Source: an uncultured Clostridia bacterium (GTDB lineage Bacteria > Bacillota > Clostridia > Christensenellales > CAG-917). Taken from it: a stretch of 64,000 nt of DNA. The position numbers and the translations under genes are program-made. The notes under the pieces were generated by a model. That model did no database searches. It was not told the origin of the DNA and worked only from the letters and a program-made list of their open reading frames with translations. Positions within the stretch are counted from its first letter, which is position 1. Every line of letters starts with the position of its first letter. The stretch lies in contig CANQNQ010000004.1 of assembly GCA_947625225.1 (NCBI GenBank), positions 443 through 64,442 of the forward strand. The letters are read 5' to 3'. This document shows positions 10,238-50,906 of this stretch, piece by piece.

Positions 10238-12007
10238 TTATTTCAGATTTGCCTTGAGCTTATCCAGCTCCGCCCTCAACTCCTTGGGCAGCTTGTCGCC
10301 GAACTTCTTGTAGAACTCCTCGATGCCGTCGGCGTCCTGTCTCCACAGCTCCTTGTCGACGGTCAGCAGATTCTCGATGTCGGCAACGGTCATATCCAGC
10401 CCGTTGATGTTGATGTCGTCCGCCTCGGGCACATAGCCGATGGGGGTCTCCTTTGCCTTGGCGGTGCCCTCCGTGCGACGGATTATCCAATCCAGCACGC
10501 GCAGGTTGTCGCCGAAGCCGGGCCACAGGAAGTGACCTTCCTCGTCCGTCCTGAACCAGTTGACGTTGAATATCTTGGGCTGATGCTTGACCTTCTTGCC
10601 CATCTCTATCCAATGTGCGAAGTAGTCGCCCATATGATAGCCGCAGAACGGCAGCATTGCCATAGGATCGCGCCTTACCACGCCGACCGCGCCCGCCGCA
10701 GCGGCAGTGGTCTCGCTTGCCATGATGGAACCCACAAACACGCCGTGATTCCAATCTCTGGCTTCGTATACCAACGGAGCGGTCTTTGCGCGCCTGCCGC
10801 CGAAGATGATGGCGTCAAGCGGCACGCCCTCGGGATTTTCAAACTCGGATGACAGGCAGGGGCAGTTTGCCGTGGGCGCCGTGAATCTGGAATTGGGATG
10901 CGCGCCCTTTATGCCCTGAGCCTGCTGTTCGGGTCCCCAAGGATTGCCCTGCCAATCGATCGCCTTCTTGGGCGGATTCTTGTCAAGGCCTTCCCACCAC
11001 ACGGTGTTGTTCTCGAGGTTGTGGCAGACGTTGGTGAAGATGGTGTTCTTGCGCGTGGAAGCCAAAGCGTTGGGGTTGGACTTCACATTGGTACCGGGCG
11101 CGACGCCGAAGAAGCCGTTTTCGGGGTTGATGGCGTACAGCCTGCCGTCCTTGCCCACGCGGATCCAGGCGATGTCGTCGCCGACTGTGTGCACCTTGTA
11201 ACCCTTCTTTGCAAACTCCTCGGGAGGAATGAGCATTGCCAGGTTGGTCTTGCCGCAAGCGGACGGGAATGCCGCCGCGATATATTTGGTCTCGCCGTTG
11301 GGCTTTTCAAGACCGAGGATGAGCATATGCTCCGCCATCCAGCCCTCTTTCCAGCCCTGGTAGGAGGCTATGCGCAGCGCGAAGCACTTTTTGCCGAGCA
11401 GCACGTTGCCGCCGTACGCGGAGTTGACGGACATGATGGTGTCGTCCTCCGGGAATTGGCAGATGTATCTCTTTTCGGCGTCAACTTCCGCCTTGGAATG
11501 CAGACCCTTGACGAAGTCGTCGCTCTTTCCAAGCGCGTCAAGCACGTTTTGACCCACTCTGGTCATTATAGCCATGTTGAGCACGACGTAAATGGAGTCC
11601 GTAAGCTCTATACCTATCTTGGAGAAGGGCGAGCCGACCTTGCCCATGGAATAGGGGATGACGTACATCGTCCTGCCCTTCATCGCGCCGCGGTAGATGT
11701 CCGCCAGCATCTTGTATGCTTCGTCCTTTTGCATCCAGTTGTTGGTGGGACCTGCCGTCTCCTGCTTTTCGGTGCAGATAAACGTCCTCGCCTCGACGCG
11801 CGCCACGTCGTTGGGCAGAGTGCGATGCAGGTAGCAACCCGGCAGCAGCTCCTGATTGAGCTTGATCATCTCGCCGGTGCCGACCGCTTCCGCGCGCAGA
11901 GCTTCCAGCTGCTGTTCGCTGCCGTCGATGAGCACAACTTTGTCGGGCTGGCACAGCTTTACGCTTTCGTCCACAAATTTTTCAACGCCTTTGCTGAGAA
12001 AATTCAT
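10238..12007 (-). CDS. pckG: Phosphoenolpyruvate carboxykinase (GTP)
   Basis: ORF trimmed to MNFLSKGVEKF after GGAGGT. It contains FPSACGKTNLAML and WMAEHMLILG, typical of the GTP-type enzyme. Confidence 0.93.
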   Translation of the reverse strand: MNFLSKGVEKFVDESVKLCQPDKVVLIDGSEQQLEALRAEAVGTGEMIKLNQELLPGCYLHRTLPNDVARVEARTFICTEKQETAGPTNNWMQKDEAYKMLADIYRGAMKGRTMYVIPYSMGKVGSPFSKIGIELTDSIYVVLNMAIMTRVGQNVLDALGKSDDFVKGLHSKAEVDAEKRYICQFPEDDTIMSVNSAYGGNVLLGKKCFALRIASYQGWKEGWMAEHMLILGLEKPNGETKYIAAAFPSACGKTNLAMLIPPEEFAKKGYKVHTVGDDIAWIRVGKDGRLYAINPENGFFGVAPGTNVKSNPNALASTRKNTIFTNVCHNLENNTVWWEGLDKNPPKKAIDWQGNPWGPEQQAQGIKGAHPNSRFTAPTANCPCLSSEFENPEGVPLDAIIFGGRRAKTAPLVYEARDWNHGVFVGSIMASETTAAAAGAVGVVRRDPMAMLPFCGYHMGDYFAHWIEMGKKVKHQPKIFNVNWFRTDEEGHFLWPGFGDNLRVLDWIIRRTEGTAKAKETPIGYVPEADDININGLDMTVADIENLLTVDKELWRQDADGIEEFYKKFGDKLPKELRAELDKLKANLK

Positions 12008-12341
12008 TTTTACCTCCATATAGTGCATTGTGTCGCACAAAATTATTTTCTTGCATGTTTGAGCGGGCAATCCAGTCTATTTGCCGTTCGCATAGAATGA
12101 TACAACATTTTGATGTCGCATGTCAATAAATTTACGTTTTTAGCGCGCGCATTTTTGCGCGCGCCGCGCGTGCTCCCGCGCTCCCGTGCGCGCGGCGGCC
12201 TTCCGCTCTTGTGCCGAGGGAAGAGAATGTCCCCAACAAATTGTATTGCGACAAAATATTTTTTGTTTTCGCTTGAATTTGCCGCCGCTCGCCTGTATTA
12301 TATTTAGACGCGCATACTACACTGAACAAAGGAAAATTTTT

Positions 12342-12881
12342 ATGCAGTCCTCGTCCTTGGATTTCAATCAGACCTTCGACAGCAAGGTACAAAAATTGGT
12401 CATCCTCTTCGTGTTTGAGAAGATGGCTATTCCGCTTACGGAGGAAACGGTGCTGGATATATGCACCTCCGACAACAAGTGGCTGGGATATATGGAGTGC
12501 AAGCAGTACCTCAACGAGCTTATCGACACCAACCTGCTGTACAACGTGCATAAAAGCGCTCTTATAGGCATCACGCAGGACGGCGTAAGCTGCCTTGGCA
12601 TGTTCTACACTCACATCCCCTCCTCTTTGCGCGAGGAGATAGCGCTGTATGTGGGCGAAAACCGCATGCGCTTCAAAAAAAAGCAGTCGTACTTTTGCGA
12701 CTACTTCAAAAATGCGGACGGCACCTACACCGTCATCATGCGCATAAACACCGAATCGTCTACGCTGATGGAGCTTAAACTTATCGTCACAAGCCGTCAG
12801 CACGCCAAATATCTGGACAAAGTATGGGTGGAAAAGGCGTCCACCATATATACGTCCATCCACGAAAACCTGTTTGAGTGA
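12342..12881 (+). CDS. DUF4364-family protein (function unknown)
   Basis: ORF trimmed to MQSSSLDFNQ. It is 179 aa with KLVILFVFEKMAIPLTEE..., recalled as the Clostridial DUF4364 pattern. A TTGAAT-17-TATTAT promoter candidate lies upstream. Confidence 0.5.
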   Translation: MQSSSLDFNQTFDSKVQKLVILFVFEKMAIPLTEETVLDICTSDNKWLGYMECKQYLNELIDTNLLYNVHKSALIGITQDGVSCLGMFYTHIPSSLREEIALYVGENRMRFKKKQSYFCDYFKNADGTYTVIMRINTESSTLMELKLIVTSRQHAKYLDKVWVEKASTIYTSIHENLFE

Positions 12882-12919
12882 CCGCGCCAAGCGCATAGCG
12901 TAAAGACTGTCCCGTCGGG

Positions 12920-13354
12920 TCAGCCTTTTTCTTTTTGAACAAGGTACGCTATCGCATCCCTGTATCCCTCAAAACCTTTACCGCATATTGTCATTTCGGC
13001 GTAAAGCGAGATGTAGGAAAAGCGACGGAACTCCTCGCGGGCGTTTATGTCGCTCAGGTGGACCTCGACGGTGGGGATGTTAACCGCCTTCAGCGCGTCC
13101 AGGATGGCGACGGAGGTGTGCGTGTACGCCCCCGCGTTGATGACTATGCCGTCCGCCTTTCCGTACGCGCGCTGTATCATCTCCACTATCTCGCCCTCGA
13201 AGTTGCTCTGCCTCACCTCGACGTCCGCGCCGAACTGCCGAGCGCAACTTACTATATACTTTTCCAGCTCCGCATAGCTGCTGTCGCCGTAAATATTCCT
13301 CTCGCGGATACCCAGCATATTGAGGTTTACGCCGTTTATCACCAATATTTTCAT
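12920..13354 (-). CDS. aroQ: Type II 3-dehydroquinate dehydratase
   Basis: ORF trimmed to MKILVINGVNLNMLGIRE after AGGAGGAAG. It contains NAGAYTHTSVAILDA. Confidence 0.93.
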   Translation of the reverse strand: MKILVINGVNLNMLGIRERNIYGDSSYAELEKYIVSCARQFGADVEVRQSNFEGEIVEMIQRAYGKADGIVINAGAYTHTSVAILDALKAVNIPTVEVHLSDINAREEFRRFSYISLYAEMTICGKGFEGYRDAIAYLVQKEKG

Positions 13355-13452
13355 ACTTCCTCCTTTTGCGCCTGTACGCGCAAACACTATTGCGCTGTAA
13401 CTTGCGTCCATTTTCATCTTTTACCGCGCCGTAACGTTACAGCGGAAAATCT

Positions 13453-14724
13453 TTACGTCACTTTTTTTGCTTCGCCGCCTATAAAACGCCGCCTCGCTTC
13501 ACGTGCGATCTTATCCACCGCGTCCTGCAAATTTCCATTGTTTTCCACATACAGGTCTGCATTTTGCCTATAAATCGGCTCTCTTTGGCCGAGCAACTGT
13601 CGCACGCTGTCGATGTCCTTGGACAGCGGTCTGCCGTCTGTGGAAAGCAGCTCGGCTTCTCGCGCTAAGCGCACCACAAAACCCGTTGCGCGCATAAAAT
13701 ACGCATTTTTCGCGGAAGTTACCGCGCCGCCGCCGACGGCTATGACGCTGCCGTTTCCGCGACAGACTTCCTCTACAACTTCGCTCTCCAGCCTTCTGAA
13801 CTCCCCTTCGCCGTCGATCGCGAATATATCGGGGATGGTCCTGCCCGTCCGCTTGCAGATCTCATCGTCCGTATCTGCAAACTTCATGTCAAGCGCCTCC
13901 GCCAGCGCCCTGCCTACGCTGCTTTTGCCAGCGCCCGCCATGCCAATAAGCACGATATTGCTGCGGCTTCCCTCTATACGCTCGGCTATATCCACGCTGA
14001 CCCGGGGCGGGACAAGTTCTCCGCCCTCCGCTTTTGCAAACAGATCGTGCGCCAGCCTGCCCTGCTCTACAAGCATAAGCATGCCGTTCGCAGCCCGCAC
14101 TCCCCTCCTAAGCGCGTTTTGAATGAGCAGCGTGCGGGTGGGATTGTATATGCAGTCGAACACGCCCTCCAGCCTCTCAAATCTGTTTAAGTCTATGGGG
14201 CAGGCGTACATATCGGGATACATGCCCACGGGCGTGGCGTTGATGACGACTTGCGTGCCGTCAAGTTCGTAACAATTTTCGTAGTTGATCTCTCCCATGC
14301 GCGACACGGTGTTGACGCTTGCCGCGCCCAGCTTTTTGCACACGAAATTTGCCGTATGCCCCGTGCCGCCGCTGCCCAAAATGAGCACATGCCTGCGGTT
14401 TATTTGTATTTTTGCATGCTCCAGCGCGCGTATCATGCCCGCGACGTCCGTATTGTATCCCTTAAGCTTTCCGCCCTCGTTGACTACGGTGTTTACCGCG
14501 CCCACCTCAGCCGCCTCGTCGTCCACAAAGTCCAACAGCGGCATGACGTCACGCTTGTATGGGATTGTAACGTTGAAGCCGCCGTACTCCCGCGCGGCGA
14601 CAAACTTGCCAAGCTCCTCAGCGCTTGCAAGCTCCCGCACGCAGTAGTCCTCATCGCCCAGCGCCGCGTGTATCTCCGGCGAGAGCGTGTGCGGCAGACT
14701 TTTGCCTATAACGCAATGTTTCAT
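13453..14724 (-). CDS. aroE/aroK: Bifunctional shikimate dehydrogenase / shikimate kinase fusion
   Basis: The N-terminal half (IGKSLPHTLSPEIH, GYNTD, LGSGGTG) is AroE-like. The C-terminal half (NIVLIGMAGAGKSSVGRALAE, DTDDEI) is AroK-like. Confidence 0.88.
   Translation of the reverse strand: MKHCVIGKSLPHTLSPEIHAALGDEDYCVRELASAEELGKFVAAREYGGFNVTIPYKRDVMPLLDFVDDEAAEVGAVNTVVNEGGKLKGYNTDVAGMIRALEHAKIQINRRHVLILGSGGTGHTANFVCKKLGAASVNTVSRMGEINYENCYELDGTQVVINATPVGMYPDMYACPIDLNRFERLEGVFDCIYNPTRTLLIQNALRRGVRAANGMLMLVEQGRLAHDLFAKAEGGELVPPRVSVDIAERIEGSRSNIVLIGMAGAGKSSVGRALAEALDMKFADTDDEICKRTGRTIPDIFAIDGEGEFRRLESEVVEEVCRGNGSVIAVGGGAVTSAKNAYFMRATGFVVRLAREAELLSTDGRPLSKDIDSVRQLLGQREPIYRQNADLYVENNGNLQDAVDKIAREARRRFIGGEAKKVT
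13541..13568 (+). repeat. CAATACAGGT-type motif, one core mismatch (ACATACAGGT 13547-13556), inside the aroE/K CDS
   Basis: CACATACAGGT CTGCA TTTTGCC has the same N5-TTTTGCC flank as the intergenic copies. It encodes QNADLYVEN on the minus strand. Confidence 0.65.
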
Positions 14725-15854
14725 AGCTCCTCGTACGCTCCCAAAAATTGGAAATTGTCCATGCTGCTCTCTATGTCCGCAAGCAGATTGCGCACCTTTT
14801 GCGAGGTCACCTTCGCCTCGAAATCGAAATAGAAGCAGAATTCGAAGGGACTGCCCGGCATCGGGCGCGACTCCAGCTTGGTGAGGTTAAGCCCCAGCGC
14901 GGAAAACCTGTTGAGCAATCTGTTAAGGCTGCCCGCCTCGTGCGCGAGGTCCAGGCTGACGCTTATCCTGTTGGCGCCCTCGTACACCTTAAGCCGCTTG
15001 GATATGGCGATGAAGCGGGTGTAATTCGCCTCCGAATCGCTCACCTTGTCCTCAATTATCTTCAGCCCGTACAGTTTTGCGCACTCCTTTGACGCGAGGC
15101 AAGCGATATCCTTGCGCCCGCTGTCCGCCACGGCCTTTGCGGCGACCGCCGTGTTGTCGCAGCGCGTGAGCGCGACGTCGGGCATGGTCTTCAAAAACTT
15201 TGCGCATTGTGTAAGCGCCTGATCGTGGGAGATTATCTCCCTTATATCCTCTTTTTTTACGCCGTCCGCGGCAAGCAGACAGTGTTGCACCTTCAGCTTT
15301 ACGCTACGCGCTATAAAAAATTTGTGGTCGTGCATCAGATCGTACACGCCTATCACGCTGCCCACGGTGCTGTTTTCGATGGGCAGCACGCCAAACTCGC
15401 ACATATTCATCTCCACCGCGCGGAACACCGCGTCCCAAGCACGAAAATAGGAGATGTTGGGGATGGCAAACATCTTGCGCGCCGCAATATAGCTGTACGC
15501 GCCCGCCACGCCCTGGCACGCCACTCCCGCCTGCACGGGGAAGGGCTGCACGCCCTCGCTCAGCGCGCTTTCAAGCTGCGAACGTATCTCAGAGCGCATA
15601 AATTCGTACTGATATGCCTTGCTTGTTTCAAACAGCGTCTCGAACACCTGCTTGCCGTACAGCTTTAGTTGTTGCGGCATGTCTGCGGTCACGCGACAGA
15701 TTATGTCGTTTTCGCGCGCGGCATTCTCCACGGGCGCGCCCAGCCTCTGCTTTTCGGCGGCCACCTGCTCGGACAGGCGCATGCGCTGTACGTAGAGGCG
15801 GGCGATGTCGTCGTCCACGCTGTCAATGTTTCTTCTTATCTCGTCAATATCCAT
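14721..15854 (-). CDS. pheA: Bifunctional chorismate mutase / prephenate dehydratase (P-protein)
   Basis: N-terminal CM helices (IDEIRRNIDSVDDDIARLYVQRMRLS), PDT motifs (PIENSTVGSV, TRF) and a C-terminal ACT domain. I chose the ATG at 15854, after GAGGGG. Confidence 0.9.
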   Translation of the reverse strand: MDIDEIRRNIDSVDDDIARLYVQRMRLSEQVAAEKQRLGAPVENAARENDIICRVTADMPQQLKLYGKQVFETLFETSKAYQYEFMRSEIRSQLESALSEGVQPFPVQAGVACQGVAGAYSYIAARKMFAIPNISYFRAWDAVFRAVEMNMCEFGVLPIENSTVGSVIGVYDLMHDHKFFIARSVKLKVQHCLLAADGVKKEDIREIISHDQALTQCAKFLKTMPDVALTRCDNTAVAAKAVADSGRKDIACLASKECAKLYGLKIIEDKVSDSEANYTRFIAISKRLKVYEGANRISVSLDLAHEAGSLNRLLNRFSALGLNLTKLESRPMPGSPFEFCFYFDFEAKVTSQKVRNLLADIESSMDNFQFLGAYEEL

Positions 15855-15867
15855 ATGCACCCCTCAA

Positions 15868-15914
15868 ATTTTTCAATACATGTGCAAATTTTGCAATACA
15901 GGTTCGCATTTTGT
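15868..15914 (+). repeat. Tandem CAATACAGGT motif units (exact core 15894-15903; CAATACATGT 15874-15883) with 20-bp phasing
   Basis: ATTTTTC at 15868, ATTTTGC at 15888 and ATTTTGT at 15908. It fills the pheA/aroC intercistronic gap. Confidence 0.8.
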
Positions 15915-17012
15915 CTAAATAATTCCGTACTTCAACGCCTCGTCCGCAAGCGCCAGCGCGACCGCGCTCTCCACGCAAGGCACCGCTCGCGGCACGATGC
16001 ACGCGTCGTGACGTCCCGCAATCTCAAGCGAAGCGGGCGACATCGTGCGCAGGTCCACCGACTGCTGTCTTATGGCAATGGACGGCGTGGGCTTTATCGC
16101 TACGCGAAGTGTGAGGGGCATTCCGTTTGCTATGCCGCCGTTTATGCCGCCGCTGTTGTTGGTGGTCGTCCTCACCTTTCCGTCCCTTACTTCAAACGCG
16201 TCGTTTGCCTCGCTGCCGCACATCGTCGTGATGGCAAAACCTTTGCCGAACTCCACGCCCTTGACGGCGGGGACAGCAAATATGCTGTATGCCAGTTTGC
16301 TTTCCAGCCCCTCGAACAGCGCGTCGCCCATGCTGCCCGCTTTTACTCCCAACGCCACGCACTCTATTGTGCCGCCGACGCTGTCGCCGCGCGCCTTTGC
16401 GCTCTTTATTGCGATGGCAGCCGCTTCGCACTGCCCGTCCAAGGTGGGAAATGCGTCCGCTTCTATGTCTATATGCGCTATAAATTTGTCAAAAACAGTC
16501 TCGTCTTGCATGCCGTCGTAGCTTGCAAGCCGCACGTCGTTTACGGAGGAAATGTACGCGCCTATCCTTATCCCACGCGAGCGGAGCAGTTCCTTGGCGA
16601 TGCCGCCCGCAATGCATAGCGGCGCGGTCATTCTGCCCGAAAATCTGCCTCCGCCGGGGGCAATGCTACCGTCGCGGCAATACGCGGCATAGTCCGCGTG
16701 CGATGGGCGCGGGACGGTGAGATCGTAGTCGGCAGATCGCACGTCGCGGTTGAGTATCTCCGCTACAATATCGCCCGTCACGACATACTCATCGCCCACC
16801 TTTTCAAGCCCTTCGACAAAACGCGGCAAGTCCTCCTCGGCGCGAGCGGTAGACCATATCCCCGCGCCGCCCTTGCGCCTGAGCAACATATTTTGCACAT
16901 CGCCAAGCGTCAGCCTTGTCCCGACGGGGACGCCGCCCAGCCTCAGCCCGATCTTGTCGGCGTGGGAGCTGCCGAATATCTCCACATTCAATTTTTCAAA
17001 ATTTGCTTTCAT
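15915..17012 (-). CDS. aroC: Chorismate synthase
   Basis: ORF trimmed to MKANFEKLNVEIFGSSH. It contains RPSHADY and GRHDACIVPRAVP. Confidence 0.92.
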   Translation of the reverse strand: MKANFEKLNVEIFGSSHADKIGLRLGGVPVGTRLTLGDVQNMLLRRKGGAGIWSTARAEEDLPRFVEGLEKVGDEYVVTGDIVAEILNRDVRSADYDLTVPRPSHADYAAYCRDGSIAPGGGRFSGRMTAPLCIAGGIAKELLRSRGIRIGAYISSVNDVRLASYDGMQDETVFDKFIAHIDIEADAFPTLDGQCEAAAIAIKSAKARGDSVGGTIECVALGVKAGSMGDALFEGLESKLAYSIFAVPAVKGVEFGKGFAITTMCGSEANDAFEVRDGKVRTTTNNSGGINGGIANGMPLTLRVAIKPTPSIAIRQQSVDLRTMSPASLEIAGRHDACIVPRAVPCVESAVALALADEALKYGII

Positions 17013-17070
17013 ATATTTTGCCCTTACGGATGATTTTCGTATTTTCCACGCCATATCGCTGTTTTATGTG

Positions 17071-17100
17071 AAAAACTACAATACAGGTGGCACTTTTGCC
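17071..17100 (+). repeat. CAATACAGGT-core motif (exact core 17079-17088), aroC/aroA gap
   Basis: AAAAACTA CAATACAGGT GGCAC TTTTGCC. Confidence 0.8.
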
Positions 17101-17101
17101 A

Positions 17102-18325
17102 TCAGTCGCGCTCGATGTCCGCGCCCACAGACCTCAGATCCTCAAAGAAATTCGGATAGGATTTGCCCACGCAATCCGCGCCATCAAGGGTACAGCCGCC
17201 AAGTTTCAAGCCGATCAGCGCGGCGCTCATCGCCATGCGGTGATCCCCGTATGAAACAAAGTTTGCGCTGTGCGGGTCTCCGCCGAATATGACGAGTCTG
17301 TCGCCATCTACCTGTGTTGAGATGTCGCAGCGCGACAGCATATCCACCACCGCGGCAAGCCTGTCGCTCTCCTTATCCCTCAAGCGCGATACGCCGTAAA
17401 CAGTTGATTTTCCCTTCGCAAACGCCAACGCCGCGCTGAGCGCGGGCACAAGGTCGGGGCAGTCTTTCGCGTCAAACTCGATGGGATCAAGCTCGCCTTG
17501 CACACAGCCCACTCCGTCCTTGCTATAAACTTTTGCACCAGCCGATTTGAGCAGTTCGACTACAACTTTGTCGCCCTGAACGGAGCGCATGTTTACGTTG
17601 TCCACGCGCACGTCGCCCATCAGCGCGCCCGCGATAAGCATAGCCGCCGCTGACGACCAATCCCCCTCAAGCATATCAGCATCAGGCGCAACATAGCGCT
17701 GTTTTGACGGCAAAAAATAACCTGTATTGAGTTTTTTTACCATAATTCCGCTGTTTTTCAACATGTCGAGAGTCAAATCCACATACCCCTGCGACACTGT
17801 TTTGCCCACAAGATGTATCTCGCTGTCCTCGCCAAGCAGTGGCAGCGCCATCAACATCCCGGATATAAATTGCGAGCTGACGTCCGCGGGCACCTTGAAA
17901 ACGCCGCCGCTCAACCTTCCTCGCACCTCAAGCGGCAACCAGCCGTCTGCGGGCGCGGTTATCTGCGCGCCATGCGCGTTGAGCGCGTCAATAAGCTCCT
18001 TCATAGGCCGCTTTGCCAGCCTACCCTCGCCCTCAAACGTGACTTTTGCGCCAAGCGCCGCCGCGATGGGCAACAAAAACCTCAATGTGGAACCGCTTTC
18101 GCCAACATTCAACGTTTTATGCGCGCTTTTGTCGCGCGCGATATTTTCGCTCAACTGCTCCAGACAACGCGCAGTAGCCGACACGTCCTTGTTTATATAT
18201 GGAAGTTCGGCGGGCTGCCCTGCAAGCGCCGAGGCTATCAAAAATCTGTGCGCCACCGATTTTGAGTACGGCACGCGCACGCTGCCCCGCAGCACGGATC
18301 TCTCAAGCCTCATGACCTCGCCCAT
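17102..18325 (-). CDS. aroA: 3-phosphoshikimate 1-carboxyvinyltransferase (EPSP synthase)
   Basis: VPYSKSVAHRFLI, LNVGESGSTLRFL and YGDHRMAMS. RBS AGGGAG is present. Confidence 0.93.
   Translation of the reverse strand: MGEVMRLERSVLRGSVRVPYSKSVAHRFLIASALAGQPAELPYINKDVSATARCLEQLSENIARDKSAHKTLNVGESGSTLRFLLPIAAALGAKVTFEGEGRLAKRPMKELIDALNAHGAQITAPADGWLPLEVRGRLSGGVFKVPADVSSQFISGMLMALPLLGEDSEIHLVGKTVSQGYVDLTLDMLKNSGIMVKKLNTGYFLPSKQRYVAPDADMLEGDWSSAAAMLIAGALMGDVRVDNVNMRSVQGDKVVVELLKSAGAKVYSKDGVGCVQGELDPIEFDAKDCPDLVPALSAALAFAKGKSTVYGVSRLRDKESDRLAAVVDMLSRCDISTQVDGDRLVIFGGDPHSANFVSYGDHRMAMSAALIGLKLGGCTLDGADCVGKSYPNFFEDLRSVGADIERD
17709..17738 (-). repeat. CAATACAGGT-core motif inside the aroA CDS (exact core 17720-17729)
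   Basis: The plus strand reads GGCAAAAAATA ACCTGTATTG AGTTTTTTT. It encodes KKLNTGYF in aroA. Confidence 0.75.
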
Positions 18326-18345
18326 AGTAAAACTCCCTTATTTTA

Positions 18346-18376
18346 CAAAAATTTATACCTGTATCGCGTTTTTCGG
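18346..18376 (-). repeat. CAATACAGGT-type motif, one mismatch (ACCTGTATCG 18357-18366), aroA/aroB gap
   Basis: CAAAAATTTAT ACCTGTATCG CGTTTTTCGG. Confidence 0.65.
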
Positions 18377-18388
18377 CAATTTTCAACG

Positions 18389-19423
18389 TCAAGCCTTGAC
18401 GTATTCGCCAAATTGCGCCCAGCTCATACGCCTTACCGCGCAGTTGCCGATACCGCGCATACACACCACGTTTATACCTTCGTCCGCGTCCGCCTTTTTG
18501 TCCGCGCGCGCAAACTCAAGCAAGTCGTCTATATCCTCGCCCTCCAAGTCAAAGCTGTACTTGCGCTCAAGCTCCTCTACCTTTTTAAGCTCATCCCGGC
18601 GAAGTTCGCCCGCCTTTAGGGCAGCGCGCGCCATGATAAGCACGCCCTTTGCCACCGCCACGCCGTGCGGGACGGTATAGCCGCTTGCGCACTCCAGCGC
18701 GTGCCCCAGCGTGTGCCCAAGGTTGAGCAGCATGCGCTTGCCACCTTCGAATTGGTCCTGCTCCACCACTTGCGCCTTGTAGCTCACGCAAAGCTCCACA
18801 AACCGCTCTAGGGGCTCTATCCCCTCGGCAAGCAGTTTTTCAAGCTCGCCGCCCGCGAGGCAAGCGTACTTTATGCCCTCGCCTATACCGCAACGCCACT
18901 CCGCCTCGGGCAGCGTGTCCAAAAAATCCAGATCTGCCGCGACAAGTATTGGCTGATGGAAGGCGCCAAGCAGATTTTTGCCGCCTGCGAGGTCTACTCC
19001 CGTCTTTCCGCCGACGCTGCTGTCTATCATAGCAAGCAGAGTGGTCGGCATTTGAACGACGGATATGCCGCGCATGTAGGTCGCCGCGGCAAAGCCCGCA
19101 ATGTCACCGACTACGCCTCCGCCAAGCGCCACAACGATGTCCTTTCTCGAAAAGCGCCTGTATCTGAGCGCCTCGATGACGGCAAGATAGGTCTCCACCG
19201 TCTTTGACGCCTCGCCCGCCTCGAAGGAGAATGTGCTTACCTTATATCCCGCGCGGTCAAACGCCTTTACGACGCGCGCAAGATGCAGAGGCGCAACGTT
19301 GCTGTCGGTCACCACCATTACTTTGCAGTCCTTTTGGCATATCTTGCCTATTGCCTCGTCAAGAATGCCGCGTCCTATATAAACCTTATATGCGGGCATA
19401 AGCCTCACTTCAACCTCTGTCAT
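18389..19423 (-). CDS. aroB: 3-dehydroquinate synthase
   Basis: GGGVVGDIAGFAAATYMRGI, LNLGHTLGHALE and HGVAVAKG. Confidence 0.93.
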   Translation of the reverse strand: MTEVEVRLMPAYKVYIGRGILDEAIGKICQKDCKVMVVTDSNVAPLHLARVVKAFDRAGYKVSTFSFEAGEASKTVETYLAVIEALRYRRFSRKDIVVALGGGVVGDIAGFAAATYMRGISVVQMPTTLLAMIDSSVGGKTGVDLAGGKNLLGAFHQPILVAADLDFLDTLPEAEWRCGIGEGIKYACLAGGELEKLLAEGIEPLERFVELCVSYKAQVVEQDQFEGGKRMLLNLGHTLGHALECASGYTVPHGVAVAKGVLIMARAALKAGELRRDELKKVEELERKYSFDLEGEDIDDLLEFARADKKADADEGINVVCMRGIGNCAVRRMSWAQFGEYVKA

Positions 19424-20267
19424 CGCCTCTCTCCCTTGCCGCCCTATCGGCTTCGAGTTTACGATTCGTGCTTTGTCTTAAAAGCACGTTAAGTGTTTTC
19501 GCATCGCCCATGTCTATTGCGCGCTTATACTGTTCAAGCCTGTCTATCATGCCGTCTATGCGGCTTACAAGATTGTCCGCGTTGTTCAAAAACAGCTCTG
19601 TCCACATATCTGCGTCAAGTCTTGCCACGCGTGTGAGGTCGTTAAAACTGCCCGCTGAGTAGCCCGCATGCTGCGCCGAAAGCGGATCGGAAGCGTAACA
19701 TCCCGACACCACGTGCGCCAGCTGGGACGTGTACGAAATCAACGTATCGTGTTTTTGAGCGGAGCATATTTCAACGTCTTTGAAGCCCAACGGAAGCAGC
19801 AACTTTGCCGCCAAGTCCTCCGCGCCGGGGCTTACGGGCACAAGGATGGCGTACGCGCCCTTGAAAAGAGTGGGAGCTGAATGCGCTATGCCGTTGAACT
19901 CCCGTCCCGCCATGGGATGAAATCCGCAGAAGTTCAGTTTGCCGTAAGTTGCCATAAGTTTCTGCATATGTGCGACGATCCCGCGCTTGTTGCCGCACAC
20001 ATCCATCACCAGCGCGCCGTCCTTAAGTTTGGGGCACAGCGCGTCAAGCTGCCTTATCGTATCCGCCTCGTTCAGCGCAACGATGGCGACGTCCATATCG
20101 CCTATGTTGTCCTCAGACAGCCTGCCGCTGACGGCGCAAAGTTTGTCCGCCTCGTCCAGCGCTTCCTCGCGGATATCAAAGCCGTACACCGTATTGTCGG
20201 TGTACTTGACGAACGCTCTGCCAAGCGAGCCGCCTATGAGTCCCATTCCGATGATAGCAATTTTCAT
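19410..20267 (-). CDS. tyrA: Prephenate dehydrogenase
   Basis: ORF trimmed to [19 protein letters not shown] (Rossmann fold) after GTGAGG. It contains HPMAG. Confidence 0.88.
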
Positions 20268-20272
20268 AAGCC

Positions 20273-21292
20273 TCACTTATCGTCCCTGTGCTTGCCGACT
20301 GCGGGAAGCATCATATCTATCGCCTTTACCATGCCGTCAAATTGGTCCGGGCGCAGCGATTGCGCGCCGTCACACAGCGCGTGGACGGGATCGTTGTGCA
20401 CCTCTATCATCAAGCCGTCCGCGCCCGCGCCTACCGAAGCGAGGCTGAGCGGAGGTACCAGCCTTGACAGCCCCGACGCGTGGGAGGGGTCGACTATCAC
20501 GGGCAGATGCGTGCGCTCCTTGAGTATGGGGATGGCCGAGATGTCAAGCGTGTTGCGCGTGTACGTCTCGTAGGTGCGTATGCCGCGCTCGCAAAGTATA
20601 ACGTTGGGATTACCCTCGGACATGATATACTCCGCGCTCATCAGCCACTCCTCGATAGTGGCGGCGAGTCCGCGTTTTAGCAAAACAGGGGTTTTAAGTC
20701 TGCCTAAGCGCTTGAGCAAGTCGAAGTTCTGCATATTGCGCGCGCCCACCTGCAAGATGTCCACGCCCTCGAAATCGTCGATATGCTCCTCGCTCATTAT
20801 CTCGCTGATGATGGGCATGCCCGTCTCCTGCTTCGCCTTTTTAAGCAGTTTGAGGCCGTCCACGCCCAAGCCCTGAAAAGCGTAAGGCGATGTGCGCGGC
20901 TTGAACGCGCCGCCGCGAAGTATGGTCGCGCCCGCCCGCTTGACCGCCTGCGCCACCTCGATTATCTGTCGCTCGCTCTCCACAGAGCATGGCCCCGCGA
21001 TGATCTGGAAACTGCCGCCGCCAAACTTGTGCCCGCCGACGTCTATCACAGTGTCCGCGGGGTGGAATTTGCGGTTGGCATTTTTGTACGGCTCCTGCAC
21101 GCGGGTGACGCTCTCCACAATGTCAAGCGTGCGCACCAGCCCGATGTCCACCTTGGACGTGTCGCCGATGAGCCCCAACACGGTGCTGTTTTCGCCCTCG
21201 CTGACATGCACGCCAAGCCCCAGGCCCTTTATCCAATTGATGAGGCTGTCGACCTGTTTTGGGTCCTTATCCTTTTTGATTACGACGATCAT
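20273..21292 (-). CDS. aroF: 3-deoxy-7-phosphoheptulonate (DAHP) synthase, type I-beta with N-terminal regulatory domain
   Basis: [17 protein letters not shown].. (ferredoxin-like domain), then [20 protein letters not shown] and VIVDPSH. RBS GGAGGG is present. Confidence 0.92.
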
Positions 21293-21336
21293 GTGCCCTC
21301 CAAAAAGCTCGTTTACTTAAATTCTGCCCTATTTAT

Positions 21337-21360
21337 AAAAAAATCCAACACCGTGTTTGG
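21337..21360 (-). terminator. Attenuator terminator candidate in the aro leader
   Basis: The minus strand reads CCAAACACGGTGTTGG followed by ATTTTTTTAT. The stem is short (about 6 bp with a bulge). It lies ~45 nt upstream of the aroF ATG. Confidence 0.5.
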
Positions 21361-21395
21361 GTGCCGGTCTTTCAAAATCCGCACACCAAACACAG

Positions 21396-21458
21396 CTACC
21401 TGACGTAGCCGAAGTAAAAGTAATATGCGGAAGCAGAATATTTGTTGCGATTTTTCAT
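21396..21458 (-). CDS. Candidate aromatic leader peptide (20 aa): MKNRNKYSASAYYFYFGYVR
   Basis: Own translation; the ORF is too short for the ORF track. It has 5 Tyr and 2 Phe, and 6 of 7 residues at positions 12-18 are aromatic. The ATG lies 6 nt after the -10 box and there is no SD. The stop is 3 nt before the alternative-hairpin region. Confidence 0.5.
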   Translation of the reverse strand: MKNRNKYSASAYYFYFGYVR

Positions 21459-21464
21459 AATTTC

Positions 21465-21493
21465 AGTGTATACTTGCGCGCGCGATTTGTCAA
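21465..21493 (-). promoter_or_regulatory. Sigma-A-type promoter candidate for the aro operon
   Basis: The minus strand reads TTGACA (21493-21488), 17-bp spacer, TACACT (21470-21465). It shares the 12-mer TTGACAAATCGC with the promoter candidate at 22764. Confidence 0.5.
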
Positions 21494-21602
21494 GAAATAT
21501 TTATTTATAATACAAATATGCATATTTTGCGCGTGTTTTGCGCGTGATTTTTTGAGATCCAAGACGACTTTTGCGCAAAAAATCCGCATTTTTTTAGGCT
21601 TG

Positions 21603-22505
21603 TTATTTGCCGCCGACAAACCTTTTTGTAAGCCTCTCAAGCTTCAAGCCGTACAGCGCGGCGACCGCCACCACCGAGGATATTGCGGCTTGCGCGGCGT
21701 CCATCGGCAGCGCGACCAGCGCCGTTGCGTACGTCCCGTAAAAGAAAGTCTGGCACACAAAATAGCCCGTCATCATAAACGCAGAGGAAAAAATACACAC
21801 CGCAAAAGACAACAATATCTGTACGACAGCGGCGACGCGGTTTGTGCGTTTTTGTGCGCTATCGGAATTTGAATTGCATTTTTCTTTGGATAAAGTACTG
21901 TTTTCGTCATATTCCGCCATATCGTTTGCATGGGGCGCGTTGTCCGGATCGCCCTCGCCGGTGCCGTCTTGAGCGTCACATATATAATCGGATCCGGAAA
22001 GAGAATTTTGTATATTTTCGGACAAATCCGTCGGCGCGGAATTGTCGTCTGCCGTAGCGCCGCTCGCCCCGACGTCAGTTGCGCCGTCCGCGTCGCTGTC
22101 TGCAAATTCGCCTTCCTCCATAGAGTCACGGCTATGCGCAGGCGAGAAACCGGCTGCTGCGGTGGATGTGGAAAACTTCCCGCCAAAGGCACGCTTCACC
22201 ATAAACTTTACCAACTTGAAAAGCATGCCGGCGATGAGCCCTTCAAGCGCTTTGATGACAAGCGTGAACAGCATCGTCGCGGGATACACGGTGAGGTCGG
22301 CAAAGAACGCGCCCAGCCCTCCCGCTATCATCGCGGGGATGGGCCCGAACAGCGATGCGCAGATGAGTATCACGCTGTCGCCGAGGTTGAAATAAAACTG
22401 CGCGCCGGAAAATCCTATAAGCGTACCCACGTACGTAAGCGCCGTCATGACCGCGGTGTAGGCGACAAACCTCGTCGCCGATTTTGCAAACTTTGCGTTT
22501 TTCAT
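21603..22505 (-). CDS. ECF-transporter S component (substrate unknown) with a ~118-aa acidic low-complexity insertion
   Basis: ORF trimmed to MKNAKFAKS after GAAGGAG. It has the S-component pattern FNLGDSVILICASLFGPIPAMIAGGLGAFFADL. An acidic S/D/G/A-rich block follows at 21840-22193, then two more TM helices. Confidence 0.7.
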   Translation of the reverse strand: MKNAKFAKSATRFVAYTAVMTALTYVGTLIGFSGAQFYFNLGDSVILICASLFGPIPAMIAGGLGAFFADLTVYPATMLFTLVIKALEGLIAGMLFKLVKFMVKRAFGGKFSTSTAAAGFSPAHSRDSMEEGEFADSDADGATDVGASGATADDNSAPTDLSENIQNSLSGSDYICDAQDGTGEGDPDNAPHANDMAEYDENSTLSKEKCNSNSDSAQKRTNRVAAVVQILLSFAVCIFSSAFMMTGYFVCQTFFYGTYATALVALPMDAAQAAISSVVAVAALYGLKLERLTKRFVGGK

Positions 22506-22523
22506 AAAAAGATCTCCTTCAAT

Positions 22524-22546
22524 AAAAAATGCACCAATATGGTGCA
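22524..22546 (-). terminator. Intrinsic terminator inside the 5' leader of the ECF S-component gene
   Basis: The minus strand reads TGCACCA TAT TGGTGCA followed by TTTTTTATTG. It lies 18 nt upstream of the RBS, so it is a conditional (riboswitch or attenuator type) terminator. Confidence 0.7.
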
Positions 22547-22729
22547 CGCTGTTCAGGAGGTCGAGAAGGTTGCCATGCAAAAAAAATTGCGGGCAAAATT
22601 CTTTCCCAGTCTGACTTTACAGGCGGTTGCGGGATCTCACCGCATCGGCTGTTGGGGCTGTTGGACTTGTTCGCTCAAGGCGACATTACCACCGGTTGGG
22701 TACACCCGATCCAAAGAATCGTATTTTGT
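22547..22729 (-). promoter_or_regulatory. Structured leader, riboswitch-like (class unresolved; weak resemblance to the cobalamin riboswitch core)
   Basis: The minus strand contains GAUGCGGUGAGAUCCCGCAACCGCCUGUAAAGUCAGAC. Compare the cobalamin riboswitch P4/L4 GGGUGAGAAUCCCGC, ..CCGCUACUGU.. and the B12-box AGYCAGGAGAC. The usual GGGAA is missing. An anti-SD CCUCCU is also present. Confidence 0.3.
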
Positions 22730-27551: not shown

Positions 27552-29286
27552 CGTCGTCCTCCCCGAAAAGGATATCCTTATACTTGAAATACGTGCGTTC
27601 ATTGAGCCTGTAGCGCTCTATTGCGGCGGCGTCGCTGTCGTCGTCGTAGTCCTTGTACACGTCCGCAAGCAGCACCGCCATCAGCGTGACGGGACTGCGC
27701 ATATGCGACACTTTTTCCAGCCTTTTGGCGCTTTTCGACTCCGCCTGATTGCGGATGTCGCGCTTGAAACTCATAAGTTTGTTGATGTCCGTGCCCAGCA
27801 GTCTCAGCGCGCGATAAGGCTCGTCGTCGGTATACAAGATGTCCACCACCGCAAACCTGTACGCCTGCTTGAGCGGTTTGGGCATCGAGGCATAGTACCT
27901 GTTGCCCATTGTCACGCTCTCCTTAAAACAGCCCTGCGCGACCACGTTGAGGTTGACGTCGCATCTGCCGTCGGCAAGATCCAGCAGCGCGATGACAAGC
28001 CTGCTGAACACGCCGAAGGAATGGTCGCCCACCGCCAGCTGTTCGAATATGACGCCGAGAAGTTCGTCGGCGATGTCCTCCCTGTTGAGGTCGTCAGCGT
28101 TTATGGTTTTATCAAACGGACCGTGCATAAACAAAATGATGTTGCACATCTTGCTTACCAGCAGGTCTATAAGCTTCTCGTCGCCCTCCAGAAACGCCCA
28201 ATTTATGACCCCGATCATATCTTTTGCCGCGATCGCCGCCGCCTCAACGGGCATAAGCAGCAACGCCTCGATGTGTTTGAAGTTGTCGATACGCGTCTGC
28301 ATGGGCGTGACCGCGGTGTACGGCACCGTCTTTACGCCCTGGCGATACATCTGCAAGATGGCGCTTGCGGGGGTAAACTCGCCGAAGATATTTTCCACCC
28401 TGCGCATGACGTTGAACGCCTCGTTGTAGTTGCCCAGGTTGTACAGCGCCTCGGACAGCCAGATCATCACGTCGGAGTTGTACTTGACGCGCTCGAGAAT
28501 GCGGCGGGTGTACTTGACTATCTCGCCGTGTCTTTCCGCGTTGATCATAAGCGGCAGCACAAGCATGATGTCGTCGGATGTTGTATAGTCCTTTGTCAGG
28601 ATGAGGTCGATAAGCGCGTCCGCCTCCTCGTCCTTGCCCTCCATCTTGTAGGCGGTGGCAAGCGCGCATTGTGTGGCGAGGTTGTCGCCGTCCCGCGCGA
28701 GCATAGCTTTGGCGTTGGCGATGACTCCGTCCACGTCGTCCTTCAGCATAAGGCACATCAGCGCGAGGTAGTCCGCAAGGTTGCGGTGCTTGCTGCGGCT
28801 GTCCACCTCGTCGAGGACGCTCATAGCCTCGTCAAGGCGCTGTTCGCGTATAAGCGCGTACGCCCTTTGGGTCAGCTTCTCGTAGTAGTCCTCCCCCTCG
28901 GGGTAGACTATGTGGAATTTGCGCTCCGGCTCGTCATGCTGTTCGGCGGTGAAATAGTCCGCAAAGTCCTCCACGTAAAACTCGGACACGTCGCTCTGTC
29001 CCATCGCCGCAAAGTTGAGCGCGAGCATAGTGCGCGCGTAGTCGTCCTGTTCGGGCGTGGGGTGCGCGCACAGCGCTTTGAAATAGTAGCGGTTGCTGAG
29101 CTCCACGACGTCTATTGCCGCATACGCCCCCGCCAACTTTATGTATATATCCGCGCGGGAGGGGTCCAGGCGGGCGGCTTTGAAAAGATAGGCGATATCC
29201 TTTTCAATATCGCCCTTTCCAAACGCCTCGTCGGCAAGATGAATGTAATCATCGCAATTAAGTTGAAATTTGATGACCTTGTCCAC
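27544..29286 (-). CDS. TPR-repeat protein (function unknown)
   Basis: 580 aa, GTG start directly after the TGA of the upstream gene. It has repeated A-x3-Y/F-x-K/A-A TPR-like helices (AFGKGDIEKDIAYLFKAARLDP, NYNEAFNVMRRV ...). Confidence 0.75.
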   Translation of the reverse strand: MDKVIKFQLNCDDYIHLADEAFGKGDIEKDIAYLFKAARLDPSRADIYIKLAGAYAAIDVVELSNRYYFKALCAHPTPEQDDYARTMLALNFAAMGQSDVSEFYVEDFADYFTAEQHDEPERKFHIVYPEGEDYYEKLTQRAYALIREQRLDEAMSVLDEVDSRSKHRNLADYLALMCLMLKDDVDGVIANAKAMLARDGDNLATQCALATAYKMEGKDEEADALIDLILTKDYTTSDDIMLVLPLMINAERHGEIVKYTRRILERVKYNSDVMIWLSEALYNLGNYNEAFNVMRRVENIFGEFTPASAILQMYRQGVKTVPYTAVTPMQTRIDNFKHIEALLLMPVEAAAIAAKDMIGVINWAFLEGDEKLIDLLVSKMCNIILFMHGPFDKTINADDLNREDIADELLGVIFEQLAVGDHSFGVFSRLVIALLDLADGRCDVNLNVVAQGCFKESVTMGNRYYASMPKPLKQAYRFAVVDILYTDDEPYRALRLLGTDINKLMSFKRDIRNQAESKSAKRLEKVSHMRSPVTLMAVLLADVYKDYDDDSDAAAIERYRLNERTYFKYKDILFGEDDDD

Positions 29287-30423
29287 TCAGTTTTTCTTCT
29301 TTTTCTTTTTGGGATTCTGATAGGGCTTGGGAGCCTGTTTTTTGGCGGGAGCGTTGCTCTGCTGCCTGTTTGCCTTGCTCTCCTTGCGCGCCTGTTGTCT
29401 GAGCTCCTGCTGCTTTTGTTTATCCGCGTCCAGCTTGCGCAAATGGCACTTTGTCATGCCGCGCGACGCCATAGCTATCCAGCAAAGCTCCATCAAGCTG
29501 CAGCCCGCGACAAGCATGGCAACGTATATGATGATGGAGAATATCATGTTTATCAAGCACAACAGCAGCGGCGCCGCGGACAGTATAGCCACCAAAGAGA
29601 CCATCACGGGATTGTTGACGATGATGACCAGCGCGTTTTTGAAGGTCTGCGCAAACGTCAGCTCATATGTGGTGTAAAGAGAAAGCATCACCATGGGGAT
29701 GAGCATCAGCGGCGCGCCGAATATAAAGCTGAACACCACCGCGCAGTACGCGCCCGCGCCCGCCGTACCCAGCGACTGCTGCTGCAACAGATACAACACG
29801 CTTGTCGCCATGGCAAGCCCGATGAGCACCTCCACCGCGGCGGTCAGCAAAAACTTCCACCAATACTTTGCAAAGCCCATCCAATATGTGCGCACAAAGC
29901 GGCTGTAATAGTCCTGAAAATAGCAGCGCTTTGCGCAGTAAAATGCGCCCGAAGCGCCCAGCCCGCCCAGAATGAGCGTCGCCGCGACCATTGCGAAAAC
30001 GGGTTCCTTCACGTCCCAATACAGGCGCGCCACGCTCACCGCGAGGCTGTCGCCGCCGCCGGGGAAGCCCGTGCCTATGTCGCCCATAAAGTTGAACGCG
30101 CCGCCCAGCACCATGTCCTCAAAATAGCCTGCGAACCACGCTATGATGATGACAAACGGAATTGTGAACAGCATAAAGAACAGCGAGCTTTTGATCATCA
30201 GCCCGAATTCGCCCTTGAACACCTTGAACGCCCTGCCGAAAAACGTGTCGGGATAATCCTTTTGGGGACGAGCCTGCGCCAGACCCGCCACCAGCACCTT
30301 TTGCGGTTCCTCGGGTTCCACGCGCACGGGCGCGTCCGTAAAGAGGCCTGCCAACAGCAGTTTTTTCTGCTTGACGGCGGTCTGCTTAGGAGCGGAGTTG
30401 TTGTTTGATGCGTTGTTTGCCAT
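29287..30423 (-). CDS. Polytopic membrane protein with Lys/Gln-rich C-terminal tail (YesL/DUF624-like topology; family uncertain)
   Basis: 378 aa with about 6 TM helices. The C-terminus is KQKQQELRQQARKESKANRQQSNAPAKKQAPKPYQNPKKKKKKN. It is the first gene of a tightly coupled 3-gene unit. Confidence 0.7.
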   Translation of the reverse strand: MANNASNNNSAPKQTAVKQKKLLLAGLFTDAPVRVEPEEPQKVLVAGLAQARPQKDYPDTFFGRAFKVFKGEFGLMIKSSLFFMLFTIPFVIIIAWFAGYFEDMVLGGAFNFMGDIGTGFPGGGDSLAVSVARLYWDVKEPVFAMVAATLILGGLGASGAFYCAKRCYFQDYYSRFVRTYWMGFAKYWWKFLLTAAVEVLIGLAMATSVLYLLQQQSLGTAGAGAYCAVVFSFIFGAPLMLIPMVMLSLYTTYELTFAQTFKNALVIIVNNPVMVSLVAILSAAPLLLCLINMIFSIIIYVAMLVAGCSLMELCWIAMASRGMTKCHLRKLDADKQKQQELRQQARKESKANRQQSNAPAKKQAPKPYQNPKKKKKKN

Positions 30424-50810: not shown

Positions 50811-50822
50811 AGACCTAAACGA

Positions 50823-50837
50823 TAGTGATTATCATTA
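50823..50837. promoter_or_regulatory. Fur/PerR-box-like 7-1-7 inverted repeat
   Basis: TAGTGAT T ATCATTA matches 6/7 as an inverted repeat. It lies 13 nt upstream of the perR ATG. Confidence 0.5.
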
Positions 50838-50906
50838 CCGAAATTATAACATATATATCACCTTTGTCAATATGTTTGCAAAAATTTTTCAAAAAATTTT
50901 TTTGAA

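Follow-up and report, generated by a model that had tools for sequence, protein, structure and literature searches.

Leader peptides that attenuate the transcription of amino acid biosynthesis genes form a described class of regulators, and Rfam holds the Phe, Trp, His, Leu and Thr leaders as well as a leu/phe leader. In Corynebacterium glutamicum, an aroR leader peptide (F-Y-F) upstream of aroF is known from experiment (PMC11802643, PMC4046766, PMC3890552) and is reported to attenuate aroF, with stalling at its Phe/Tyr codons enhancing transcription (Neshat et al. 2014, as summarised in PMC11802643 and PMC4046766). The uORFC-13-1 motif, a predicted upstream open reading frame (uORF) with an adjacent intrinsic terminator, lies exclusively upstream of aroF in Acholeplasma and in unassigned environmental sequences (24 representatives; PMC8632094), and His leader-peptide attenuators have been predicted in the Bacillus cereus group, the Peptostreptococcaceae and the Erysipelotrichales (PMC2965389, PMC9413887). 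Leader peptides on leaderless mRNAs are known from Deinococcus deserti (PMC4007540) and from C. glutamicum ilvL (PMC11857589), and the abstract of a preprint reports them for mycobacterial poly-Cys short ORFs (bioRxiv 10.1101/834739). Here we analysed a 64-kb stretch of DNA from an uncultured Clostridia bacterium (hereafter the window, meaning the stretch at its full length), in which an aromatic amino acid operon of eight genes, aroF to aroQ, is preceded by a 20-codon ORF rich in Tyr and Phe codons and by a set of alternative RNA helices. This element is most probably a ribosome-mediated (leader-peptide) transcription attenuator that responds to how far tRNA-Tyr and tRNA-Phe are charged and thereby governs the aroF-to-aroQ operon, as an earlier note on the same DNA had proposed.

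Leader ORF, alternative helices and predicted switch

The leader is read on the minus strand and comprises the following features (loci of relatives are labelled L001 onward):

21493-21488, minus strand: -35 hexamer TTGACA, kept as TTGACA in the close relatives L001-L005
21470-21465, minus strand: -10 hexamer TACACT, separated from the -35 by a 17-nt spacer and ending 6 nt before the ATG
21458-21396, minus strand: leader ORF MKNRNKYSASAYYFYFGYVR, 20 codons plus a TAG stop codon at 21398-21396
21405-21425, minus strand: regulatory codon run, codons 12-18, TAT TAC TTT TAC TTC GGC TAC (YYFYFGY)
21430-21420, minus strand: region 1, CCGCAUAUUAC, over the Ser-Ala-Tyr-Tyr codons; its pairing with region 2 gives an anti-antiterminator, which may also be a pause helix
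21410-21394, minus strand: stop-codon hairpin GGCUAC-GUCAG-GUAGCU, which takes in the last Tyr codon as well as the stop codon and is nested inside 1:2
21395-21379, minus strand: region 2, CUGUGUUUGGUGUGCGG, immediately 3' of the stop codon; supplies the antiterminator's 5' half
21367-21351, minus strand: region 3, CCGGCACCCAAACACGG, common to the antiterminator and to the 5' arm and loop of the terminator
1:2 helix: CCGCAUAUUAC with GGUGUGCGG, -21.7 kcal/mol, z = -4.2
2:3 antiterminator: CUGUGUUUGGUGUGCGG with CCGGCACCCAAACACGG, -21.8 kcal/mol, z = -4.2, with 0 of 200 shuffles folding as well
3:4 intrinsic terminator, minus strand: CCGGCACC (21367-21360), loop CAAACAC, GGUGUUGG (21352-21345), then AUUUUUUUAU (21344-21335)

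The promoter (TTGACA-17-TACACT) and the ORF are as the earlier note had claimed. The codons (ATG AAA AAT CGC AAC AAA TAT TCT GCT TCC GCA TAT TAC TTT TAC TTC GGC TAC GTC AGG TAG) include five for Tyr and two for Phe, that is 7 of 20, with six aromatic residues among seven consecutive ones and no Trp codon. The A of the ATG is the seventh base after the -10 hexamer and no Shine-Dalgarno (SD) sequence stands in front of it; the position of the -10 hexamer predicts a leaderless mRNA, with transcription starting at the A of the leader AUG. Across the whole window and both strands, only two ATG-initiated mini-ORFs with at least five aromatic residues in seven were found, the leader ORF included, and only five ATG or GTG triplets abut a promoter match of at least 10/12 in the leaderless fashion. 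The second mini-ORF, the poly-Phe MTLSTQFFFFFFLGF at 29273-29320 on the plus strand, lies inside long ORFs on both strands and was judged a chance product of a T-rich stretch.

The three helices 1:2, 2:3 and 3:4 are predicted to be mutually exclusive. The 2:3 hairpin was confirmed; the 3:4 terminator had to be redrawn, because the pairing of CCAAACAC with GGUGUUGG given in the earlier note joins adjacent segments and leaves no loop, the real 5' arm being CCGGCACC, 7 nt further upstream. This correction leaves the logic of the switch unchanged, since the antiterminator continues to include region 3 in its entirety. Between the stop codon and GUGUUUGG there are 2 nt, rather than 3 nt. The terminator stem of 8 bp, five of them G-C, is modest (-11.5 kcal/mol, z = -2.5, followed by U7); it is longer and less marginal than the earlier note had feared. 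Region 1 (CCGCAUAUUAC) and the conserved stop-codon hairpin had both been missed.

The switch was modelled by masked folding, in which the RNA covered by a ribosome, extending 12 nt in the 3' direction from the first base of the codon in the A site, was blocked and the remainder refolded. With the A site on any of the seven aromatic codons, 0% of the terminator pairs were present in the minimum-energy fold of the window leader and the antiterminator formed instead; placing the stop codon in the A site gave 89% of these pairs; and with no ribosome the fold comprised the 1:2 helix and the terminator, again with 89% of the terminator pairs. The 2:3 versus 3:4 logic of the earlier note is thus borne out by the masked folds, and as modelled the window leader switches among three states in the way that is classical for the trp and phe attenuators.

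The sequence shows the ORF and the helices, and that these exclude one another and are conserved; the mechanism proposed here adds where transcription would start, that the ORF would be translated, and that pausing and regulated termination would occur in vivo. The first transcribed base would be the A of the leader AUG or the base before it, and the 5' AUG would be loaded directly by a ribosome. When Tyr and Phe are plentiful, the ribosome would reach the UAG and cover about 12 nt downstream, the 5' part of region 2; region 3, left free, would pair with region 4 to give the CCGGCACC/GGUGUUGG-U7 terminator, ending transcription some 45 nt short of aroF. When Tyr-tRNA or Phe-tRNA is scarce, the ribosome would stall in YYFYFGY, covering region 1, opening the stop-codon hairpin and leaving region 2 free to pair with region 3 once it is made; no terminator would then form and RNA polymerase would enter the operon. 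Transcripts that are not translated, for example read-through transcripts from the upstream gene in which the SD-less AUG is internal, would adopt 1:2 plus the terminator, a default-off state that should insulate the operon from upstream read-through. More speculatively, the 1:2 or stop-codon hairpin could serve as an RNA polymerase pause signal that lets the ribosome catch up.

The operon under this putative control is given by three further features:

12920-21292, minus strand: operon aroF-tyrA-aroB-aroA-aroC-pheA-aroE/aroK fusion-aroQ, eight tightly spaced genes
20273-21292, minus strand: aroF, 3-deoxy-D-arabino-heptulosonate 7-phosphate (DAHP) synthase with an N-terminal ferredoxin-like regulatory domain (Pfam DAHP_snth_FXD)
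21301-21296, minus strand: aroF SD sequence GGAGGG

Because the gene content covers the common pathway together with tyrA and pheA (the latter encoding a chorismate mutase/prephenate dehydratase), the operon is predicted to make chorismate and then both Tyr and Phe, and the leader codons, Tyr and Phe but not Trp, match this output. The number of genes agrees with the earlier note. The gene order aroF-tyrA-aroB-aroA is repeated in relatives, and a promoter scan showed no promoter-like site between the terminator and aroF. The window AroF aligns over its full length to PDB entries 1rzm and 3pg9, which we take to be the Thermotoga maritima enzyme that is feedback-inhibited by Tyr and Phe; by this analogy, allosteric control of AroF is likely to act on top of the transcriptional control.

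Leader ORFs upstream of aroF in relatives

The conservation of the leader was evaluated in 160 aroF loci from genome and metagenome collections (AroF identity 57-83%; the window's own copy is labelled WIN), of which 153 were fetched and, with the window itself, gave 154 usable loci in which a leader ORF was sought within 220 nt of aroF. The nearest relatives are uncultured Clostridia from rabbit gut and 'Christensenella sp. UBA1262'; the nearest genomes have AroF identities of 75-83%, and scanning metagenomes brought just three further loci, at 72-73%. An exact look-up of the window AroF in the public assemblies gave no record. A mini-ORF with at least five aromatic residues in seven, no more than 300 nt upstream of aroF, was present at 51 of the first 78 loci (65%) versus 3.5% of dinucleotide shuffles. 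Overall, 102 of the 154 loci carried a Tyr/Phe-rich leader ORF; it started with ATG in 96 of these 102, was followed by a terminator (hairpin plus T-run) at the same position in 93 and was preceded by an SD-like motif in 86, the SD rate being 85% for leader ORFs versus 7% for the remaining ATG triplets of these regions. Across loci, the leader peptides contain Phe (16%) and Tyr (13%) more often than any other residue, and outside the aromatic run they show no conservation of sequence across the class. The Y/F-rich mini-ORF and the stems that the earlier note had looked to relatives for are thus both conserved. Its expectation that such control would be unusual for Firmicutes needs qualifying, the class being common upstream of aroF in Oscillospiraceae, Ruminococcus and Christensenella-like Clostridia. 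The class appears to be uncatalogued; no Rfam match was found in the loci carrying the leader ORF, and longer versions of the ORF appear in public databases as 'hypothetical protein' on more than 1000 contigs.

Two layouts were distinguished. In the first, to which the window belongs, short ORFs of 15-21 codons place region 2 just past the stop codon; in the second, found in Oscillibacter and Ruminococcus, longer ORFs of 28-41 codons (for example ...AEYRYFSFTYF.GKAYFGLAE...) contain region 2. Among 82 distinct leaders, the segment complementary to the 5' arm of the terminator lies inside the ORF or directly after the stop codon in 79, where it could be covered by a translating or terminating ribosome. 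For the distant relatives, masked equilibrium folding was replaced by a duplex-potential test on these 82 leaders, which gave a median of -16 kcal/mol and a median z of -1.9, with z < -2 in 39 of the 82, a result that lends support without settling the matter. Where aroF is followed by tyrA, Tyr makes up a weakly higher share of the leader (0.45 vs 0.30), which we do not take as evidence.

As a separate observation, the Oscillibacter-type leaders (L014, L016, L031, L087-L095, L107, L138 and others; about 90-200 nt upstream of aroF) have a common peptide tail, ...F.GKAYFGLAE..., after the aromatic run; L016 is the cultivable Oscillibacter valericigenes Sjm18-20, whose leader is of the SD type. 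The tail partly overlaps the 5' half of the antiterminator, and its conservation may reflect RNA pairing alone or a function of the nascent peptide as well. In addition, three metagenome-assembled loci labelled Lentisphaerae or Kiritimatiellae (L022, L034, L044) carry the same leader ORF and terminator, with AroF 60-65% identical to that of the window; these could reflect errors of binning or labelling, or horizontal transfer of the operon together with its leader.

The leaderless layout is shared by the window and L001-L005, all of which show TTGACA, a 17-18-nt spacer, TAnAnT, a gap of 6-7 nt and ATGAAAA without an SD sequence. The bases between the -10 hexamer and the ATG vary among these six sequences while the distance of 6-7 nt is kept, which strengthens the reading of the earlier note that the leader lacks an SD sequence and is leaderless. 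In the next-closest loci, L006, L081 and L082, the same type of ORF (MNSMITVYNYYYFYFEESIS) lies behind a 35-nt untranslated region (UTR) with a GGAG SD sequence, and for this reason we regard the leaderless form as a local variant.

Within this clade, per-sequence folds recovered the terminator, the 1:2 helix and an antiterminator whose 5' half starts 0-9 nt past the stop codon in 8 of 8 close relatives, despite substantial sequence change, and the masked minimum-energy folds gave the same switch as in the window for L001, L003, L004 and L081. An alignment of six sequences showed compensatory double changes in three of the six pairs of the stop-codon hairpin, achieved through synonymous or stop-codon changes: in L002 a Gly codon changes from GGC to GGU opposite a stop codon that changes from UAG to UGA, in L003 a Tyr codon changes from UAC to UAU opposite an Arg codon that changes from AGG to AGA, and in L004 and L005 a G-C pair at the base of the stem becomes A-U. 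Read by eye from the per-sequence folds, the 1:2 pair that flanks the CGCA/UGCG core is C:G in the window, U:A in L001 and A:U in L003-L005. That coding and pairing appear to be constrained at once is the prediction of a translated attenuator. For the 2:3 and 1:2 segments, MAFFT and RNAalifold put the stems out of register and the consensus structures were uninformative; alignment-based covariation has little power here, because the nearest AroF identities are only 75-83% and 72-73%.

In a different lineage, Erysipelotrichaceae/Massilimicrobiota, aroF is preceded by T-box leaders (L053, 2717-2964; L069, 2732-2965; L079, 2713-2942; 114-125 bits). The specifier of the L079 T-box reads UUC (Phe) in a by-eye reading of the alignment at this one locus. 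On the strength of these covariance-model matches and the leader ORFs described above, the predicted sensing systems have clearly been exchanged at one gene, one lineage using a leader peptide and another using a T-box. L053 also has a second T-box (4110-4358) just downstream of aroF.

Weighing of alternatives and genomic surroundings

The window leader combines an ORF of regulatory codons, an intrinsic terminator before the first gene, the 1:2/2:3/3:4 set of helices and a stop codon placed so that a terminating ribosome would occlude region 2; these sequence-level features of a ribosome-mediated attenuator are all present and are conserved in relatives. The hairpin and U-run could instead form an attenuator that is read by an RNA-binding protein or small ligand on the UAY/UUY-rich segment, in the manner of TRAP or PyrR, with the ORF incidental. 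The aromatic run does double as a U/A-rich triplet repeat overlapping region 1, an SD sequence is missing from the window copy, and protein- or RNA-sensed attenuators are common in Bacillota; against these points, the repeat has a strict 3-nt periodicity in frame with a conserved ATG and stop codon, exchanges between Tyr and Phe codons and among synonymous codons leave the frame intact, the SD sequence sits at the right distance in front of analogous ORFs far above its background rate, and the position of the stop codon relative to region 2 is conserved. TRAP-type (G/U)AG repeats are absent, the leader having one UAG and no GAG, and no riboswitch or leader family of Rfam matches, so that we consider this explanation improbable. 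Slightly less probable still is a small aromatic-rich functional peptide, with the hairpin and U-run acting as its terminator, or as an insulator against riboflavin-transporter read-through, and with an aroF promoter that escaped notice. The 'hypothetical protein' annotations of the longer ORFs would suit such a peptide, and the lack of a strong minus-strand terminator behind the upstream gene would suit an insulator; yet the peptide beyond the aromatic run is not conserved across the class, the interval between terminator and aroF holds no promoter-like site, the association is specific to aroF, and a plain terminator would have no need of a competing helix that is conserved, with its 5' half against the stop codon, in every relative.

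That a promoter-like site, a short ORF and hairpins came together by chance in an intergenic region rich in A and T is very improbable: the promoter scan alone is not enriched (2 sites versus 1.3 expected), but the frequency of the mini-ORF in relatives is far from that in shuffles, the helix z-scores are near -4 and the whole layout is kept in relatives that are not near-identical strains, with AroF identities of 58-83%. The presence of T-boxes upstream of aroF in Erysipelotrichaceae raises the prospect of a T-box or other tRNA-binding leader in the window too, and to this we give next to no weight. The T-box covariance model (RF00230) has no match at E <= 10 in 21200-21700, although the same search finds the T-boxes of L053, L069 and L079, and the leader is only about 120 nt long versus about 220-250 nt for the T-box matches at aroF. 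A match of the leader to a T-box or other covariance model was what the earlier note had named as telling against an attenuator, and none scores: Rfam gave no match at the gathering threshold, and at E <= 10 the only match to a leader family was Thr_leader (15.1 bits versus a cut-off of 55, E = 3.4).

Several observations weigh against a leader-peptide attenuator. The minimum-energy folds of L002, L005 and L006 retain the terminator even with a ribosome at an aromatic codon, and for most of the distant relatives equilibrium folding favours the terminator (-15 to -27 kcal/mol), which leaves the case there to a kinetic argument. The terminator of the window is modest, with two G-U pairs in its 8 bp and a stability of -11.5 kcal/mol. 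Alignment-based covariation could be counted for the stop-codon hairpin only, with few close sequences and with the other helices taken from per-sequence folds, and the relatives are almost all metagenome-assembled genomes. Moreover, Bacillota are classed as having 'runaway' transcription, in which RNA polymerase outpaces the ribosomes (PMC13323073, PMC7858274), and ribosome-dependent attenuation would therefore be kinetically demanding unless RNA polymerase pauses in the leader.

The surroundings of the operon were also annotated, and the neighbouring features are listed below:

21527-21547, plus strand: terminator-like hairpin TTGCGCGTGTTTTGCGCGTGA plus TTTTTT, close to the aro promoter on its upstream side and directed antisense to the operon
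21603-22580, minus strand: upstream gene, an ORF for a riboflavin-type S-component of an energy-coupling factor (ECF) transporter, 325 aa as listed, with a Pfam match over residues 35-129 only
22594-22723, minus strand: flavin mononucleotide (FMN) riboswitch, 67.5 bits, just above the gathering score, directly upstream of the S-component ORF
12680-12707, minus strand: strong terminator-like hairpin (10 pairs plus T5), about 210 nt past the aroQ stop codon and inside the 254-aa ORF that follows
12132-12896, minus strand: 254-aa ORF after aroQ, with no Pfam or NCBIfam match; may be spurious
10238-12070: gene for a GTP-type phosphoenolpyruvate carboxykinase, next in line, behind its own TTGACA-18-TATCAT promoter
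50820-50870, minus strand: perfect TTGACA-16-TATAAT promoter followed by ATGATAATCACTATC, Fur-box-like by eye
50397-50810, minus strand: 137-aa ORF downstream of ATGATAATCACTATC, judged a Fur-family regulator from its N-terminal sequence alone
53073-53200, minus strand: ribosomal protein L10 leader (Rfam RF00557, 67.6 bits)

The aro operon probably ends at the hairpin at 12680-12707. At its other side, no strong minus-strand terminator was found behind the transporter gene; transcripts may thus run on into the aro leader, where the default state of the attenuator would stop them. A six-codon ORF, MIITIV, at 50835 on the minus strand was considered as a further leader peptide and rejected as a by-product of the Fur-box-like sequence before the Fur-family gene.

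Relation to known leader-peptide attenuators

The mechanism itself is a textbook one, and there are precedents for a leader peptide at aroF, known in C. glutamicum and predicted in Acholeplasma; what is new here concerns where such attenuators occur and in which variant, and leaves the principle as it was. Taken together, the results allow a wider reading that we put forward tentatively: the element of the window may belong to a large uncatalogued family of Tyr/Phe leader-peptide attenuators, perhaps the main regulator of shikimate/aro genes, rather than T-boxes, across Oscillospiraceae, Ruminococcus and Christensenella-like gut Clostridia; the clade of the window may, as far as we could find, provide the first leaderless ribosome-mediated attenuator in Bacillota; and so widespread a regulator, if it needs the first ribosome to keep pace with RNA polymerase, would imply functional proximity of ribosome and polymerase, or programmed pausing, in these leaders. 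Such a family may explain how aromatic amino acid synthesis is controlled in abundant gut Clostridia, where the loci with the leader ORF have no T-box at aroF and the ORFs are unannotated or called 'hypothetical protein', and leader-peptide attenuation would appear to be common, not exceptional, in one class of Bacillota. As ribosome-mediated attenuation needs the lead ribosome close behind RNA polymerase, these leaders may offer a natural reporter for coupling or pausing in Clostridia (compare PMC13323073), and the leaderless sub-type removes the SD step from the question of coupling. In practice, metagenome-assembled genomes could be annotated better, and the engineering of anaerobes could gain a compact part that responds to Tyr/Phe.

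We found no description of a leader peptide for an aro operon in Clostridia in the openly searchable full-text literature; subscription papers lie outside it, so an earlier description is possible. Pfam and NCBIfam hidden Markov models gave no match at E <= 10 to seven leader peptides, that of the window included. The nearest counterpart by function is aroR-aroF of C. glutamicum, likewise a Phe and Tyr leader peptide upstream of a DAHP-synthase operon; according to the reports cited above, aroR has only three regulatory codons in an actinobacterial host and is reported as responsive to Phe and not to Tyr, whereas the window has a seven-residue run with six aromatics in Clostridia, and homology between the two is unlikely. 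The uORFC-13-1 motif resembles the window leader in joining a uORF and a terminator upstream of aroF in Bacillota in the broad sense, and differs, by its published description only (PMC8632094), in having a ribosome-binding site (absent from the window copy) and a U-run that codes for at least one Phe.

The known leaderless leader peptides share with the window a transcription start at the start codon of the leader peptide and the lack of an SD sequence, the start in the window being predicted only; they come from Deinococcota and Actinobacteria, where leaderless mRNAs are abundant, whereas the window belongs to Clostridia. The predicted His leaders of Firmicutes are, like the window element, leader-peptide attenuators standing where a T-box is used elsewhere, but they concern another amino acid and other operons and are unrelated in sequence to the window leader. 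The aroF T-box of Erysipelotrichaceae occupies the same position, has the same terminator/antiterminator output and responds to a related signal, tRNA charging; it differs in sensing uncharged tRNA directly, through RNA-tRNA contacts and with no ORF, and the window leader has no T-box match.

In architecture, the window element is like pheL-pheA, trpL and hisL of Escherichia coli, with a short ORF enriched in codons for the regulated amino acid, 1:2/2:3/3:4 helices, a stop codon just before region 2 and an intrinsic terminator before the first biosynthetic gene. It has no sequence or covariance-model similarity to these leaders, and it differs from them in its predicted sensing of two amino acids (5 Tyr and 2 Phe) and its putative control of the whole common pathway and both branches instead of a single branch gene, as well as in its predicted leaderless form without an SD sequence, its extra conserved hairpin over the stop codon and its Clostridia host.

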